Of a stretch of DNA of 64,000 bases, positions 7,017 through 53,100 are shown in pieces. The position numbers were made by a program, and so were the translations under genes. The notes beneath the pieces are model-generated. The model was not told where the DNA came from. It searched no databases and saw nothing but the letters and a program-made list of their open reading frames with translations. This DNA is from Acidobacteriota bacterium (lineage in GTDB: Bacteria; Acidobacteriota; Terriglobia; Bryobacterales; Bryobacteraceae), in assembly GCA_026393985.1 (NCBI GenBank), contig JAPKZB010000080.1:71584-135583 (forward strand), in the 5' to 3' direction. The first letter of the stretch is position 1. The number at the start of each line of letters is the position of its first letter.

Positions 7017-7423
7017 GGTTTTCCGGGTGTCGCCGGGAGGGGCGGATGTCCGGCCGGCAGATCCGGGCTAGCGGCGCCACCATCGGGTGTGCCATGCGCG
7101 GGTGCGGGAATCGAGTGGGGGTTCGCCGTGGCTGCCGGAGCGGCGCCGGGCTTCCGCTTCACCACCCACTTGGCGCCCTCCGCCTCGAGCGAATAGGAGA
7201 TGCGGATGCCGTTTCCGGGTGAACCCTTCGGCCCGATGCTGGCTACCACCTCGGCCTCTTTCTCTTTGAAGTCGACGCTGATGACTTCGACATCCATCGA
7301 GGAGGCCATCATGTCGTCCCGCTTGGCCAGGTATTCGACGATCGCTTGCTTTACGGCGTCTTTGGTCTGTGGCGCTCTGGCACACGAACTGAGGAGAAGA
7401 AGAACAGCAAGAAAGCGACGCAC
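7013..7423 (-). CDS. Hypothetical lipoprotein
   Basis: Signal peptide with lipobox (LLLLSSC). Shows a 4-nt stop/start overlap with the reductase gene. Confidence 0.6.
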   Translation of the reverse strand: MRRFLAVLLLLSSCARAPQTKDAVKQAIVEYLAKRDDMMASSMDVEVISVDFKEKEAEVVASIGPKGSPGNGIRISYSLEAEGAKWVVKRKPGAAPAATANPHSIPAPAHGTPDGGAASPDLPAGHPPLPATPGKP

Positions 7424-7503
7424 ACCATAAGTATAATACCCGCGGCGTGTTAGCGGGACCCGCCAGGCCGGAATTCGTTGCCGCGGCTTTTGGTGCGGAG
7501 GAT

Positions 7504-7671
7504 CTAGCGAACTGGGTTGGGCATCGGCCCCGCCGTTTGGCTAGCCGGCAAATTCGCCAGTTGGTTGAGGGAGTCCGTAAACGCCGGAATCTGCGCCGGC
7601 GCGAACCGCTCGTGCTGGGCGACGGCCGAGGCCATCCGGATGAGATCGAATTGAAAGGATAAGTTTTCCAT
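7504..7671 (-). CDS. Hypothetical 55-aa protein (not in ORF track, below length cutoff)
   Basis: Reads ATG..TAG as MENLSFQFDLIRMASAVAQHERFAPAQIPAFTDSLNQLANLPASQTAGPMPNPVR. Its third codon positions are clearly more G/C-rich than those of the overlapping plus-strand ORF 7447..7662. No obvious SD. Confidence 0.3.
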   Translation of the reverse strand: MENLSFQFDLIRMASAVAQHERFAPAQIPAFTDSLNQLANLPASQTAGPMPNPVR

Positions 7672-7683
7672 GAAGCGCGTATC

Positions 7684-7725
7684 GAAAAAAAAGAGCCTGT
7701 CTTTAACGTTTATTTAAAGACAGGC
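7684..7725 (-). terminator. Intrinsic terminator closing the structured RNA
   Basis: The minus strand reads AGCCTGTCTTTAA-ATAAACG-TTAAAGACAGGCT, then C and eight T. Confidence 0.75.
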
Positions 7726-7922
7726 TACAAAGTTGTACTTCGGAGTGAACACAAACGGAAAACACAGAGAGAACAGTGACAAGCCCAGGCTGAAGGCTCA
7801 AACGGCTAGGTTGGGCGGGGTATATGGAGGGATTCAAGGGGTTACAACTTACTGGCAGGTTCAACTGGGGAAACTAGCGAGGAACAACCATCACCGTTTG
7901 AGCCCTTCCCGGCTTCATCACA
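7684..7922 (-). ncRNA. Candidate sigma-54-dependent structured RNA (sRNA or cis-acting leader); 5' end inferred
   Basis: AT-richer and ORF-poor. Contains a long imperfect hairpin: 7920-7910 pairs with 7784-7775, an 11-bp perfect helix pairs 7903-7893 with 7804-7794, and 7888-7884 pairs with 7812-7808. The hairpin encloses a G-poor 71-nt apical region with four C-runs, followed by an intrinsic terminator. Confidence 0.5.
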
Positions 7923-7932
7923 CCCTCATTGA

Positions 7933-7948
7933 TTGCAAACAGCGTGCC
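7933..7948 (-). promoter_or_regulatory. Sigma-54 (RpoN) -24/-12 promoter
   Basis: The minus strand reads TGGCACG-CTGT-TTGCA, an exact match to the consensus TGGCACG-N4-TTGCW. It lies in an intergenic region. Confidence 0.6.
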
Positions 7949-7949
7949 A

Positions 7950-7986
7950 AACACCAAAGGCGGGAAATCTGGGGATTTCCCGCCTT
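7950..7986 (-). terminator. Probable terminator of the TolC-like gene
   Basis: The minus strand reads AAAGGCGGGAAATC-CCCA-GATTTCCCGCCTTT followed by GGTGTTTGG. Confidence 0.55.
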
Positions 7987-8050
7987 TGAGAGCGGTTCCG
8001 GCGGAAAAAAATCCTGAGCGTGGCCGGACAGCGTGCAGTTTTGGGCGTGT

Positions 8051-8079
8051 GTTCCGTTTTGGGAATCCCGAAACGGAAC
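8051..8079. promoter_or_regulatory. 29-nt near-perfect palindrome, candidate enhancer-binding-protein site (UAS) or RNA hairpin
   Basis: GTTCCGTTTTGGGA-A-TCCCGAAACGGAAC. Its centre is about 118 nt upstream of the -24 GG of the sigma-54 promoter. No U-tract follows on either strand. Confidence 0.3.
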
Positions 8080-8085
8080 AGGAGG

Positions 8086-10023
8086 CTACTGGACGCCCGG
8101 AACGGTACTCGGCGGCCGCGAGACCACGCCCTGGATGGCCTCTTCCATATTGATGCTGTTCGCCGCGAGGGTTTGGCCGGTGGCACGTTCGAGGTCGTTG
8201 CGAGCGCGCGCGTAGGTGCTAAGCGCCGCCACTTCGTTGGCCTGGGCCGAGGTGAGGTCCCGCTGCGCCTGGATAACAAAGAAGATGGTCGAGGCGCCCA
8301 GACTGTACTTTTTCTGCTCGGCGTCGAGGGTCTGCTCCTGCAGCACCCGATTCTTCACGGCGGTCTGATACCGGGCCCGGGCCTGCTGGAGGCTGATCAG
8401 CGCATTCTGCACATCGACGCGCACCTGGTTCTGCTGCTGTTGGAAGCGGATTTCGCTCTGCCGGATGGAGAGCTGCTCGCGCACCATATCCGACTGCGCC
8501 GCGCGATTCCGGAGCGGTACGTTCAAGGTGACGCCCACGGCATAATCCGGGAAGTTCCGCCGGAAGACCTGACCGAGCGCCGTCCCGTATCCACCGAGGA
8601 AGAAGCCATCGACCGAGGCCGGGTTACGCGCCAGCGGCGTCGTGTTGGTGGCGCCAGGCACGGGCGGGATGGGCAGCGAGTTGAGCGAACCGGACAAGCC
8701 GTTGTTCTGGAAACGTCCAAAGGCATCAATCGACGGGCGCAGGGCGTTCCTGGTGCCGACGAGGCCGATCTTCGCGCTTTCAATGTTGATTCGGGACTGC
8801 TCCACCTCGGGGCGGTTGTCCATGGCCTTGGACACCAGATCCTGGATCGGTTCGATCGGTTCGGTCTCCGGAATCCGAATCTTGTCGGTAGCGATGACGC
8901 GGGCATCGGCCAGCGAGGCGCTGGTGACCCCGGTCCGCGAGAGCGCATTCTTGAGAATTGTCTCCTGCTGCAGCAGGTTGGTCTCGGAGATAGTCAACTC
9001 CTGCTGGCTGCGGGCCACTTCGGCTTCGGCGCGGATGATCTCGATCGGCGCCAGGGTGCCGATCTCCACCTGCTTTTTGTTGTCCTCGTACAGCTTCTGG
9101 TTGAGTGCCAGGGCCTGCCGCTTGACGAGCACATCTTCGTTGGCGGCTACCAGATCCCAGTAGCGGGCGATGACGCCAGCCACGGTGGTAATCACCTGCT
9201 GCTTGAACGCCAGACCGGAAACCTTCAAATTGTTCCGGCCAATGCGGATGTTCCGGTTGTTGACGGCAAGGCCGAAGCCCTGCAGGAGTCGCTGCTGCAC
9301 TTGAATGCTGGCGTTGACGTTGCGGGCGGGATTGAAATCGAGACGTCCCGAGTTCTGCTCCGAGATAAAGTTATTGAACCCCATCGAGACGGTGGTGCCC
9401 GAAACGAACGCCTTGCTAACGCTGAACTGCGAGACGTCACGCACCGAGATCAGCGAGCTGGTACCGGTGTTGAAGAGGGTAGTCTGCGGCTGGGTGGTTT
9501 TGCTCCTCTGAATCGTCGAGGTAAAGACCGGATCGAAGTTCGCCACGTTCAGACTGGTACCGGTCGCCTGCGCGGTAACCGCTTGCGAGGTACTTTCAAT
9601 GCCGCCGCCGCCCGCCAGACCGCCACCGCCGCCGCCGCCACCGTCGCCGCCGACCTGCGTGGTGCCGGTATTGATGAAGTTGCCCTGGTTCCGGGCGATA
9701 CCGCCGGAGATGGCGCGGTTCAAATCGGCTTCCGAAATCTTCGGGCCGTAGCGCTGCAATTCAATGTCGAGGTTGTTCTCGAGCGCCAGGGCGATTGCAT
9801 CCTGCAACGAGAGATACAGTTTGCCGGCGCGAAGCAGTTGCTCCAGGCGATTGGAGTTGCCCAGATTCGCAGGGGCGATATCCCGCCAGGTGTAGGGGTC
9901 GGTGAAGCGGCCCTGCCACCAGTTGCCAAAAGAACCGGCTTTCTTGGTCTGTTGGGGCAGCGCCGCCGGGCTGAACAGCAACAGAGCGGAGAGAAGGCTA
10001 AGGGGACGTCGGAGTGCATTCAT
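8086..10023 (-). CDS. TolC-family outer membrane efflux protein
   Basis: Signal peptide and a duplicated OEP-type repeat architecture with coiled-coil segments. Contains a poly-Gly insertion. Confidence 0.85.
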   Translation of the reverse strand: MNALRRPLSLLSALLLFSPAALPQQTKKAGSFGNWWQGRFTDPYTWRDIAPANLGNSNRLEQLLRAGKLYLSLQDAIALALENNLDIELQRYGPKISEADLNRAISGGIARNQGNFINTGTTQVGGDGGGGGGGGLAGGGGIESTSQAVTAQATGTSLNVANFDPVFTSTIQRSKTTQPQTTLFNTGTSSLISVRDVSQFSVSKAFVSGTTVSMGFNNFISEQNSGRLDFNPARNVNASIQVQQRLLQGFGLAVNNRNIRIGRNNLKVSGLAFKQQVITTVAGVIARYWDLVAANEDVLVKRQALALNQKLYEDNKKQVEIGTLAPIEIIRAEAEVARSQQELTISETNLLQQETILKNALSRTGVTSASLADARVIATDKIRIPETEPIEPIQDLVSKAMDNRPEVEQSRINIESAKIGLVGTRNALRPSIDAFGRFQNNGLSGSLNSLPIPPVPGATNTTPLARNPASVDGFFLGGYGTALGQVFRRNFPDYAVGVTLNVPLRNRAAQSDMVREQLSIRQSEIRFQQQQNQVRVDVQNALISLQQARARYQTAVKNRVLQEQTLDAEQKKYSLGASTIFFVIQAQRDLTSAQANEVAALSTYARARNDLERATGQTLAANSINMEEAIQGVVSRPPSTVPGVQ

Positions 10024-10210
10024 GGGTTTCGGGTCAGGTATCTCGGTTCGAGTATCAGGGGGTATGGGAAGAGACGATCTCTACGGGGCCGTTGTTCCAG
10101 GAAACACGTTTATGGTAGCGCAAGAGTTACCCCTCTTTCATACAAGGCAGGCATTTCCGGCGGGCCCGCCGGTTGGGGATTACCGGCGGCTCCTGTTATC
10201 CTGACGGGGA

Positions 10211-10813
10211 ATGTCTGATCCTGTTCTGGCGGTTTTTGAGACTACCGGCGCCTATCTGCGGGGCCATTTCCGGCTCACGAGTGGGCTGCACAGCCCGGAG
10301 TACCTGCAGTGCGCCAAGGTTCTGCAGTATCCGGCGCACGCCGCCACGTTTGGCGCGGCCCTCGGCAGACACTTCGCCGGCATGGCCGCAGGGGGAAAGG
10401 CCGCAGCCGGAAAAATTGATGCCGTGGTCAGCCCCGCCATGGGGGGACTGATCATCGGCCACGAGGTGGCGCGCGCCCTTGGCACCCGGTTCGTGTTCAC
10501 CGAGCGGGACGCTGCCGGCCGGATGACGCTGCGCCGGGGGTTTGCGATTGAGCCCGGCGAGACGACCGTGGTGATCGAAGACGTGATCACGACCGGCGGC
10601 AGCACGCGCGAGGTAATCGAGATATTGAAGGGCTGCGGCGCCACGGTGCTCGGCGCCGGGTCGATCATCGATCGCAGCGGCGGACAGGCGGACGTAGGCG
10701 TACCCCGGATTGCCTTGGCGACGCTCCAGGTGACGGCTTGGCCGCCCGAAAGCTGTCCGTTGTGCCAGCAGGGCCAGCCGATCATCAAGCCCGGCTCACG
10801 GAATGTCGGCTGA
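10211..10813 (+). CDS. pyrE: Orotate phosphoribosyltransferase
   Basis: HFRLTSGLHS N-terminal region and the PRPP-binding motif VVIEDVITTGGS. Confidence 0.93.
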   Translation: MSDPVLAVFETTGAYLRGHFRLTSGLHSPEYLQCAKVLQYPAHAATFGAALGRHFAGMAAGGKAAAGKIDAVVSPAMGGLIIGHEVARALGTRFVFTERDAAGRMTLRRGFAIEPGETTVVIEDVITTGGSTREVIEILKGCGATVLGAGSIIDRSGGQADVGVPRIALATLQVTAWPPESCPLCQQGQPIIKPGSRNVG

Positions 10814-11558
10814 GGGCCGGACTTTCCGGCTGACCATTGCCTACGACGGGGCCGACTACGCCGGCTGGCAGGTGCAACCGGACCAGGTCACCATTCAAAG
10901 CGAAATTGAGCGGGCGCTCTGGCAGGCCACCAAAGAAAAGGTCACCATCCACGGCAGCGGCCGCACCGACGCCGGGGTCCACGCCCTCGGTCAGGTGGCT
11001 TCGTTTCGCACAACGAATCCCATCCCGCCAGAAAACCTGCAGCGCGCCGTGAACCGGCTGCTGCCGCCGGCCATCCGCATTCTCGCCGTCGAGGAGGCAC
11101 CCGCCGACTTTCACGCCCGCTTTTCGGCGCGTGGGAAACGATACGAGTACCGCATCTGGCGGGAGCGGATCTGTCCGCCGCATCTGGCGCGCTACGTCCA
11201 TACCCATCCCTATCCGCTCAGCTTGCCGGCCATGATCGCCGCGGCGCCCCTGTTTGTTGGCGAGCACGACTTCTCCTCTTTCTCCGCCGCCGACGCCAAG
11301 GACGCCCTGGGCCATTCGAAGGTCCGGCGCATCTGGGTCTCCGAGATGGTCGAAGAGGGGCCCCTGCTGATGTACCGGGTGGAAGGCAGCGGTTTTCTTA
11401 AGCACATGGTGCGGAATCTGGTCGGTACCTTGATTGAGGTCGGCCGCGGCAACCTCTCGGCGGCCGGGCTGCGCGGATTGCTCGCTACCCCGCAGCGCGC
11501 CCGGGCCGGCAACACGGTGCCGGGGCACGGCTTGTACCTCGTGCGCGTAGACTACTAA
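10803..11558 (+). CDS. truA: tRNA pseudouridine(38-40) synthase
   Basis: YDGADYAGWQVQP and GSGRTDAGVHALGQV with the catalytic Asp. Confidence 0.93.
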   Translation: MSAEGRTFRLTIAYDGADYAGWQVQPDQVTIQSEIERALWQATKEKVTIHGSGRTDAGVHALGQVASFRTTNPIPPENLQRAVNRLLPPAIRILAVEEAPADFHARFSARGKRYEYRIWRERICPPHLARYVHTHPYPLSLPAMIAAAPLFVGEHDFSSFSAADAKDALGHSKVRRIWVSEMVEEGPLLMYRVEGSGFLKHMVRNLVGTLIEVGRGNLSAAGLRGLLATPQRARAGNTVPGHGLYLVRVDY

Positions 11559-53013: not shown

Positions 53014-53100
53014 GCGCATGTGGCGGAATTGGCAGACGCCCCGGATTTAGGTTCCGGTACTCGAAAGGGTGTGGAGGTTCAAGTCCTCTCATGCGCACCA
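53014..53100 (+). tRNA. tRNA-Leu (anticodon TAG)
   Basis: Acceptor stem GCGCATG/CATGCGC plus A-CCA. Anticodon stem CCGGA/TCCGG with loop TTTAGGT. Long variable arm and T-loop GGAGG-TTCAAGT-CCTCT. Confidence 0.93.

Follow-up and report, generated by a model that had tools for sequence, protein, structure and literature searches.

What occupies the gap that a bacterium of the Acidobacteriota (family Bryobacteraceae) keeps between a gene for a TolC-like outer-membrane protein and the next gene on the same strand? The gap lies in a stretch of 64,000 nt from contig JAPKZB010000080.1 (assembly GCA_026393985.1, positions 71,584 to 135,583), here called the window. A first-pass annotation, made from the letters of this DNA, had described it as an AT-richer gap of about 400 nt, and it measures 414 nt (7672..8085) with 51.2% G+C against 63.9% for the window. 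The same annotation had proposed that the minus strand of this gap carries a sigma-54 (RpoN) promoter driving a structured, C-rich and non-coding small RNA (sRNA). The promoter, the covariation of the stems, the composition of the loop and the lack of any conserved reading frame support this central proposal, and we consider it highly probable that a genuine conserved, structured non-coding RNA gene with a sigma-54 promoter resides here. On the fuller statement, that this is a stand-alone sRNA of an uncatalogued Bryobacterales family acting in trans by base-pairing, we stand evenly divided. All the elements first described are present, with every coordinate given 1 nt too low; corrected positions are collected in Table 1.

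The promoter and the predicted transcript

The promoter had been placed at 7948..7933 and lies in fact at 7949..7934. Nowhere else in the window is the consensus TGGCACGNNNNTTGCW matched, and 100 shuffles that preserved the dinucleotides gave no match at all. When the pattern is relaxed to TGGY-N7-TTGCW, three matches appear against 1.96 expected, so that the other two are at chance level and the relaxed patterns reveal no additional credible promoter in the 64 kb. With C7935 taken as position -12, transcription would start near G7923.

The promoter is not a peculiarity of this genome. In the family of related loci described below, every one of the 40 members whose upstream sequence is available, the window included, has GG-N10-GC at a set distance before the RNA; among them are seven loci that took no part in the seed alignment (L026, L050, L051, L054, L056, L062 and L066). 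The family form can be written (T)TGG-N9-TGC(A/T/C), its spacing to a conserved 5′ GCGUGA is constant within a few nucleotides, and the sequence that surrounds it diverges from one member to another.

The minimum free energy fold of 7923..7684 (240 nt) reaches -70.3 kcal/mol, with a z score of -3.98, and none of 200 shuffled sequences folds as well. It contains the helices of the long hairpin that the first-pass annotation had drawn, here named P1, P2 and P3 from the outside inwards, preceded by a 5′ tail that carries GCGUGAUGA. The apical region had been described exactly, as 71 nt with only 10 G. Main hairpin, linker and terminator follow one another as listed in Table 1.

A family of RNAs with covarying stems

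Is this RNA shared by other bacteria? To answer this question, 80 loci were fetched through their TolC-like protein (47-94% identity) from species-representative genomes, all of them Bryobacterales or unclassified Acidobacteria assemblies plus one isolate, and labelled L001 onward. With blastn, the window RNA matched only its six closest relatives. Further members came from a regular expression for the promoter and a by-eye reading of the 500 nt past the tolC stop codon, followed by a covariance model. The distant loci share a common layout: TTTGG-N10-TGC, some 10 nt, GCGUGA, the long stem GGCUCAAGGAG / CUCCUUGAGCC, then GGUUGAUCC, a C/U-rich stretch and CCCAACC.

Evidence for an RNA structure comes from the way in which these stems have changed. 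In a MAFFT alignment of 32 sequences, built from sequence alone, RNAalifold recovers the long stem P2 unaided, and each of its 13 pairs has at least one sequence showing compensatory changes. A second sequence-only alignment of 30 members, A2, was the source of the covariance model R1. There P2 is 90.0% paired with 14 of 14 pairs changed on both sides, and P3 is 90.7% paired with four of five; overall, 23 of 24 pairs change on both sides and none of 500 shuffles reaches either the observed pairing or the covariation score. Sliding the 3′ partner by one to three columns lowers pairing from 82.6% to 25-51%. A model-guided alignment of 39 members (A3) gives 90.4% pairing, with both sides changed in 18 of the 19 pairs of P2 and P3; being biased toward the model, A3 tests covariation less cleanly than A2.

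Across the window and the 80 loci (about 1 Mb), the covariance model finds 40 homologues scoring 27.8-114.5 bits, one copy per locus and always on the tolC strand, seven of them from outside the seed alignment; the window holds a single match, at 7926..7781. The check in related genomes that had been proposed for this RNA has therefore found both sequence and structure conserved, with covarying stems. What does not extend to the whole family is the outer part of the long hairpin. We tried P1 as a family-wide helix and rejected it: it is 52.8% paired on A2, and a duplex test is significant (z below -1.5) in nine of 39 members, namely the window clade together with L016, L056, L067 and L073. The hairpin of the first-pass annotation is in this sense general in P2 and P3 and clade-specific in its outer helix.

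A side observation concerns P2 itself. In many members (for example L035, L043, L064, L074 and L077) its 5′ arm contains AAGGAG, a perfect Shine-Dalgarno (SD) sequence, and its 3′ arm CUCCUU, the anti-SD core, so that their main stem is a literal SD:anti-SD duplex. The window clade has swapped AAGGAG/CUCCUU for AAACGG/CCGUUU by covariation, and such a stem is therefore not essential.

The family is known so far from Bryobacterales only, a soil and freshwater order of the Acidobacteriota, with one member in a cultured strain, KBS 96 (L066), whose RNA lies at 10080-10231 and ends in a hairpin and T-rich tail that would serve as its terminator. In half of the TolC loci no copy of the RNA was found within 6 kb of tolC. 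Exact-pattern scans of metagenomes recall the family poorly, since the candidate patterns matched at most 19 of the 40 known members. A 22-base RNA pattern with two gaps returned 19 metagenome loci, of which only two, near-identical to each other, are genuine (L082 and L098); the other 17 (L081, L083-L097 and L099) gave no match to model R1 at E values up to 0.01.

A long C-rich loop and no conserved reading frame

In all 39 full-length members, P3 encloses a loop of 67-84 nt with 41% C and 12.5% G, a C/G ratio of about 3.3, on a locus background of 31% C and 30% G. By this ratio, the window loop falls in the top 0.64% of the 71-nt windows on both strands of the 64 kb. The conserved positions of the loop adjoin P3, with CCCNCCC preceding CAACC at the 3′ base. 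Against composition-matched shuffles the loops are enriched in UCCUC (32 occurrences, 11.2 expected), CCCGCC (14, 2.7 expected) and UCCU (50, 27.4 expected), and also in UCCC, and these motifs have no fixed positions except at the loop base. The four C-runs and the two copies of CCCC-N-(G)UUGAA to which the first-pass annotation had drawn attention are indeed in the window loop; they are not conserved in the family and their exact form is for that reason probably incidental.

There is also a resemblance at the other base of the loop. The 5′ arm of P3 and the start of the loop (GGUUGAUCCYC; 7889-7878 on the minus strand, consensus GGUUGAUCCUC) look like the 3′ end of 16S rRNA, which in Escherichia coli reads ...GCGGUUGGAUCACCUCCUUA, a helix followed by AUC-CCUC. 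This likeness could be a coincidence or an anti-SD mimic.

Could this be a gene for a small protein instead? Each of the three frames spanning the loop stays open in only a minority of 35 members (4, 10 and 11), fewer than shuffled sequences would lead one to expect, and the window has all three closed. The only sizeable open reading frame (ORF) on this strand, which starts with TTG (7864..7703) and which had been judged non-coding-like, shows 0.444 G+C at third codon positions (GC3) against 0.71-0.85 in neighbouring genes and is frameshifted in close relatives, and the longest ORFs differ even among close relatives. Nowhere in the family did we find a conserved reading frame with coding-like codon bias, as a small-protein gene would show.

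Candidate elements upstream of the promoter

Sigma-54 promoters call for an activator, whose binding sites typically lie about 80-150 nt upstream, and two kinds of candidate site precede this one. A perfect palindrome begins 7 nt past the stop codon of the TolC-like gene, 102-130 nt upstream of the -24 element, and may be the upstream activating sequence of an enhancer-binding protein; alternatively, it may form an RNA hairpin at the 3′ end of tolC. No second copy exists in the window, and none of the fetched loci contains the half-site in exact form. L001-L006 have homologous palindromes that have changed symmetrically, and related GTYCC-N5-GRGAC pairs lie upstream in L051, L054, L064, L074 and L079. 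The second candidate, which we put forward with low confidence, consists of A/T-rich boxes that correspond to AATTGCAYG ... AAWTTTTGC boxes that recur in many members 60-110 nt ahead of the promoter (read by eye in L001, L026, L030, L035, L038, L039, L043, L050, L077 and L082). De novo enrichment returned TTTTTGC as the sole strongly enriched 7-mer upstream of the promoters, in seven of 34 loci against 0.24 expected. Both site types differ from clade to clade, and we treat them as leads rather than findings.

Between these sites and the promoter, a hairpin with a tail that reaches into the -24 element probably terminates transcription of the TolC-like gene. Its stem is near-identical in the window and in L001-L006 (with one substitution each in L004 and L006), its loops differ, and in L044 a comparable terminator abuts the promoter.

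Table 1. Positions in the window of the RNA, its structural parts, the elements upstream and the adjacent genes
Feature	Position	Strand	Basis or remark
Sigma-54 (RpoN) promoter TGGCACGCTGTTTGCA, TGGCACG-CTGT-TTGCA	7934..7949	-	16/16 match to TGGCACG-N4-TTGCW
Predicted primary transcript, about 238-240 nt	7685..7923	-	inferred start near G7923 to U-tract
Conserved family core (5′ tail, P2, P3, loop, 3′ arms)	7781..7926	-	model R1, 107.4 bits, E = 1e-23
P1 5′ arms, GUGAUGA (7921..7915) and CCGGG (7912..7908)	7908..7921	-	pair with 7782..7776 and 7789..7785
P1 3′ arms, CCUGG (7789..7785) and UUGUCAC (7782..7776)	7776..7789	-	predicted fold
P2 5′ arm AGGGCUCAAACGGU, 14-bp helix	7893..7906	-	pairs with 7806..7793
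P2 3′ arm GCCGUUUGAGCCUU	7793..7806	-	pairs with 7906..7893
P3 5′ arm, GGUUG	7885..7889	-	pairs with CAACC 7813..7809
P3 3′ arm, CAACC, with conserved CCCCGCC just before	7809..7813	-	predicted fold and family alignment
Apical loop, 71 nt (27 C, 10 G, 20 U, 14 A)	7814..7884	-	predicted largely unstructured
U-rich linker from main hairpin to terminator	7727..7775	-	sequence conserved only within closest clade
Intrinsic terminator: 13-bp stem (7726..7694), 7-nt loop, C + U8 (7692..7685)	7685..7726	-	stem and U-tract
Probable TolC terminator hairpin GGCGGGAAAT-CCCCAG-ATTTCCCGCC, then TTTGGTGTTT running into the -24 element	7959..7984	-	read from sequence
Candidate A/T-rich element: AAAACTGCACG (8042..8032), then GGATTTTTTTCCGCC (8014..8000)	8000..8042	-	by-eye reading
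Perfect inverted repeat, two GTTCCGTTTYGGGA half-sites	8051..8079	n/a	both half-sites exact
55-aa ORF (MENLSFQFDLIRMASAVAQHERF...)	7504..7671	-	starts 13 nt past terminator U-tract, GC3 0.77
TolC-like outer-membrane efflux protein	10023..8086	-	Pfam OEP, 1.9e-39
pyrE-like gene	10211-10813	+	orotate phosphoribosyltransferase motif VIEDVITTGGS
truA-like gene	10803-11558	+	sequence motif GSGRTDAGVHA

Genomic context

On the minus strand of the window the order is TolC-like gene, RNA, 55-aa ORF, a 136-aa putative lipoprotein (an N-terminal signal-like sequence ending in Cys, with no family match), a FAD-dependent reductase of the geranylgeranyl-reductase/lycopene-cyclase type and a hemL-like class-III aminotransferase. 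The link to tolC is the constant part of this arrangement: the RNA starts 51-347 nt past the tolC stop in 32 loci and 0.6-5.1 kb away in seven (L050, L051, L054, L056, L062, L063 and L066), where it is intact with other genes intervening. The two context-free metagenome matches again place it directly after a TolC-like gene. In both of them (L082, 3-242 and 2759-2989; L098, 29-343 and 2918-3049), two TolC-like genes lie about 2.5 kb apart on the same strand, and the sRNA follows the second.

Downstream, the gene sets are unrelated between clades and comprise hemL-operon genes, molybdenum-hydroxylase subunits, a zinc-ribbon protein and others; a same-strand gene begins 30-200 nt past the RNA in many loci. 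The lipoprotein/reductase/hemL set as the following genes is restricted to the closest clade, and seven loci have a convergent gene next (L015, L016, L033, L043, L062, L063 and L064). A downstream neighbourhood that varies by clade and can be convergent indicates that the RNA is not a 5′ leader, which disfavours the alternative offered in the first-pass annotation, of a conditional terminator that governs the small ORF and the three genes behind it. Among the other neighbours, the commonest is a molybdenum hydroxylase of the xanthine-dehydrogenase/aldehyde-oxidase type, assigned by motifs alone: a Tat-signal 2Fe-2S subunit and a hydroxylase large subunit lie downstream on the same strand in L030, L038, L049, L050, L056, L073 and L074.

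The 55-aa ORF looks coding by its GC3, has no visible SD sequence and gave no Pfam or NCBIfam match. It was considered as part of a family module and rejected, being found only in the window clade (43-53% identity, L001-L005). No promoter is evident for the ORF itself, which may therefore rely for its expression on transcription that passes the sRNA terminator.

On the other side of tolC, two minus-strand ORFs (10252-10788 and 10785-11528) that might have formed an operon with it were rejected as antisense shadows of the pyrE-like and truA-like genes. They gave no Pfam or NCBIfam match, and their antisense translations still yield apparent conservation across loci with tblastn. The truA-pyrE/tolC arrangement is kept in most of the 80 loci. 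The TolC-like protein scores 56.6 bits against an NCBIfam TolC cut-off of 225 and is thus a divergent outer-membrane factor; it carries a glycine-run insertion (GGDGGGGGGGGLAGGGG) at residues ~125-142, and the region 5′ of its gene (10024-10063, minus strand) is C-rich with no SD sequence (ACCCCCUGAUACUCGAACCGAGAUACCUGACCCGAAACCC-AUG).

Alternative explanations

How much of this evidence speaks for an sRNA that acts by base-pairing? A number of observations weigh against this interpretation or against parts of it. That the locus is transcribed at all is something we infer, and the same holds for its need of RpoN and an activator, for an action in trans and for which mRNAs it would target. Neither a search of the six frames for GAFTGA-type motifs nor tblastn with an NtrC central AAA+ domain found an activator gene in the window, as the first-pass annotation had stated, or in the 80 loci, and the activator must therefore be encoded elsewhere. 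A hairpin with a U-tract was recognised only in the window clade (L001-L005), L014, L066 and perhaps L016, and in most members none could be recognised; the 13-bp stem with eight U described for the window (7726..7685) is real and belongs to that clade and these few others, not to the whole family. The excess of G:U over A:C pairs is modest (36 against 25), so the strand assignment rests on the promoter, the asymmetry of the loop and the terminator. Classical base-pairing sRNAs usually have their seed as the best-conserved part, and here the loop is variable save for its ends, GAUCCYC on the 5′ side and CCCNCCCAACC on the 3′ side. The canonical anti-SD pentamer CCUCC, correctly noted in the window, is unenriched across the loops (14 against 16.1 expected), and since the shuffle test for loop motifs ignores shared ancestry, the enrichments given above are overstated. 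With composition kept more than sequence and CCUCC unenriched, the loop fits protein binding about as well as base-pairing. An RNAduplex scan of 57 predicted start regions in the window returned long, implausible duplexes with G-rich regions and no interpretable target, and the start region of the adjacent tolC gene, C-rich and lacking an SD sequence, pairs poorly (-10.2 kcal/mol).

Could the loop then be bait for a protein? A stem displaying about 70 nt of C/U-rich RNA might sequester an RNA-binding protein, for which Rho is the most specific candidate and ribosomal protein S1, KH-domain and cold-shock proteins are others; sigma-54 induction would then retune the activity of that protein across the cell, by analogy with CrcZ and Hfq. 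A protein that reads composition or a motif would leave just such a loop, conserved in length and in C/G but not in sequence, with an extreme C/G rank in the window and with conserved positions at its base beside P3, as expected of a defined binding platform; its length and its excess of C over G also agree with the published criteria for rut sites (PMC6407284). We nonetheless hold such titration to be rather unlikely, because the loop has no regularly spaced repeated motif and the RNA would have to be highly abundant, and composition cannot discriminate here, given that avoiding G to keep a C-rich seed single-stranded yields the same bias. A related idea, which we judge distinctly improbable, is a sigma-54-induced decoy for the core gene-expression machinery rather than a regulator of a few mRNAs, either a rut mimic that traps Rho or a mimic of the 16S 3′ end; in the latter form, the GGUUGAUCCUC / CCCNCCCAACC loop base would soak up SD sequences or a factor that binds the 16S 3′ end.

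The same agreement with the rut criteria (PMC6407284) would let the loop serve as the transcript's own rut site, with termination shortly downstream. Rho could in this way define the 3′ end of those members that have no hairpin and U-tract and must still terminate, including those that face a convergent gene, and could control read-through into the same-strand genes that often start 30-200 nt past the RNA, such as the 55-aa ORF of the window. A rut site needs no covarying 19-bp stem around it, however, the window clade already has a strong intrinsic terminator, and the variation and occasional convergence of the downstream genes speak against any cis-attenuating leader. As an account of the whole, self-termination or attenuation through Rho therefore seems to us quite unlikely; it would explain 3′-end formation at most, not the existence of the RNA, and complements the other models. 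Finally, there might be no RNA gene, the inverted repeat being a DNA-level element (a palindrome bound by a protein, or a site of recombination or replication) or a structure of the tolC 3′ untranslated region, and the sigma-54-like motif a silent or unrelated binding site. DNA inverted repeats likewise evolve symmetrically, and both the small G:U excess and the tight linkage to tolC would suit this view. It is barely credible beside the promoter motif that all 40 members keep at a fixed distance amid diverging sequence, the strong strand asymmetry of a loop that is C-rich on the promoter strand, the TolC-terminator-like hairpin that separates the tolC stop from the promoter, the seven intact copies far from tolC with other genes between, and arms ~80-110 nt apart, which is unusual for a protein-binding palindrome.

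Proposed mechanism

In the base-pairing sRNA model, RNA polymerase with sigma-54 would wait at TGGCACG-N4-TTGCA and fire only upon activation by an enhancer-binding protein, probably bound to the palindrome, to the A/T-rich boxes or to both, 60-130 nt upstream. The transcript would fold so that P2 (14 bp) and P3 (5 bp) form a stem holding out a loop of ~70 nt, predicted to be unstructured because it is G-poor and C/U-rich, and in the window clade the intrinsic terminator would end it. The loop is the presumed effector region. It would most likely pair with G-rich SD or translation-initiation regions of several mRNAs and thereby alter their translation or stability. This model comes first in our ranking because established sRNAs, NfeR1 among them, already work with several redundant anti-SD motifs left unpaired (PMC10746234). 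Since the RNA is found so constantly next to a TolC-like gene, it may serve cell-envelope or efflux physiology, and our confidence in any particular targets or physiological role is low.

Significance

Acidobacteria are among the most abundant bacteria of soils, and we know of no functionally characterised sRNA in them. The element described here is a well-supported candidate for one: its promoter class is unambiguous, its stems covary clearly and it counts 40-plus members. Its promoter would tie the RNA to a single activator-gated signal, which makes the regulatory input testable. For a bacterial sRNA it is built in an unusual way, with a long conserved stem that exposes a loop of ~70 nt whose composition and length are kept and whose sequence is not. 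The loop also answers to what defines a site of Rho loading, and the family could thus bring to light either a new type of anti-SD regulator with many seeds or an RNA that acts as a decoy for some general factor; if the decoy reading were true, an environmental cue sensed through a single enhancer-binding protein would globally retune transcription termination or translation initiation in Bryobacterales. The adjacency to tolC points to envelope or efflux control, which would fit the link between sigma-54 and the bacterial exterior that Francke and colleagues are said to have proposed in 2011. An Rfam family could be started from the alignment and the covariance model.

Comparison with known systems

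Is the RNA a known one under another guise? The Rfam/Infernal comparison that had been suggested matched no family: in a cmscan with all 4227 families of Rfam 15 at the gathering score, the window yields only a tRNA (53014-53097, plus strand, 52.5 bits), and over 7400-8300 nothing meaningful appears at E values up to 10, with Qrr, Acido-1, Acido-Lenti-1 and 6S included. The loci of ten other members gave none at the gathering score either, and two members gave none at E up to 5; in all, no covariance model matched the window or eleven other members. Weak tp2 and mir-4524 hits were rejected, as they merely reflect the terminator hairpin. In the literature on Acidobacteria or Bryobacter with sRNA, sigma-54 or RpoN, we found no description of such an RNA.

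Several known RNAs resemble it in one respect or another. A small RNA gene kept beside an outer-membrane protein gene recalls micF, next to ompC, and micC, next to ompN, which are divergent from their porin genes, have sigma-70 promoters and use 5′ seeds. Here, the RNA lies downstream of the TolC-like gene on the same strand, with no convincing complementarity to the tolC start. To our knowledge, the promoters of the C-rich anti-SD sRNA families are not sigma-54 dependent. In NfeR1, three redundant CCUCCUCCC motifs in unpaired regions occlude ribosome-binding sites, and its promoter has no sigma-54 signature (PMC10746234). As in NfeR1/alpha-r14 and CcsR of alpha-proteobacteria, RsaE/RoxS of Firmicutes and 6C of Actinobacteria, unpaired C-rich motifs could pair with G-rich ribosome-binding sites in our family. 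In NfeR1, CcsR, RsaE and 6C, however, the C-rich motif is short, ultraconserved and set in small hairpin loops, whereas here it is one continuous, variable loop of 67-84 nt in which UCCUC and CCCGCC rather than CCUCC are enriched, and no Rfam match connects them. The rut sites are described as unstructured, C-rich and G-poor regions of at least 70-80 nt, scored in a 78-nt window with C>G (PMC6407284). The loop is like them in length and C/G, and in composition so are all 39 full-length members; rut sites are normally loose features of nascent mRNAs, whereas this loop has a covarying 19-bp stem and a dedicated sigma-54 promoter.

The closest parallels in promoter class are RNAs that already depend on sigma-54. 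In Myxococcus, a soil bacterium outside the Gammaproteobacteria, the reported sigma-54-type sRNA Pxr is built of multiple stem-loops; ours is unrelated in sequence, differs in architecture and has no Rfam match. CrcZ and CrcY of Pseudomonas depend on sigma-54 and CbrB, and the repeated A-rich motifs of CrcZ titrate Hfq. Our RNA shares with them the sigma-54 class and a presumed functional part made of unpaired stretches with a skewed composition in place of a single conserved seed, and differs from CrcZ in being C/U-rich, with no regular repeat and no homology found. The Qrr RNAs of Vibrio, to which the first-pass annotation had compared it, are about 100 nt long, with four short stem-loops and a highly conserved seed. 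Their transcription needs sigma-54 and LuxO bound upstream (PMC4878744, PMC11407668). Like Qrr1-5, the RNA of Bryobacterales would be a stand-alone intergenic gene with its own sigma-54 promoter and a predicted NtrC-type activator, so that the comparison stands for the promoter class; unlike them, it has no adjacent activator gene and no similarity in sequence or structure, and it carries one long stem with a variable C-rich loop of ~70 nt. Together, the lack of any covariance-model match and this differing architecture point to a new family and to a new architectural variant of the sigma-54-dependent regulatory sRNA.

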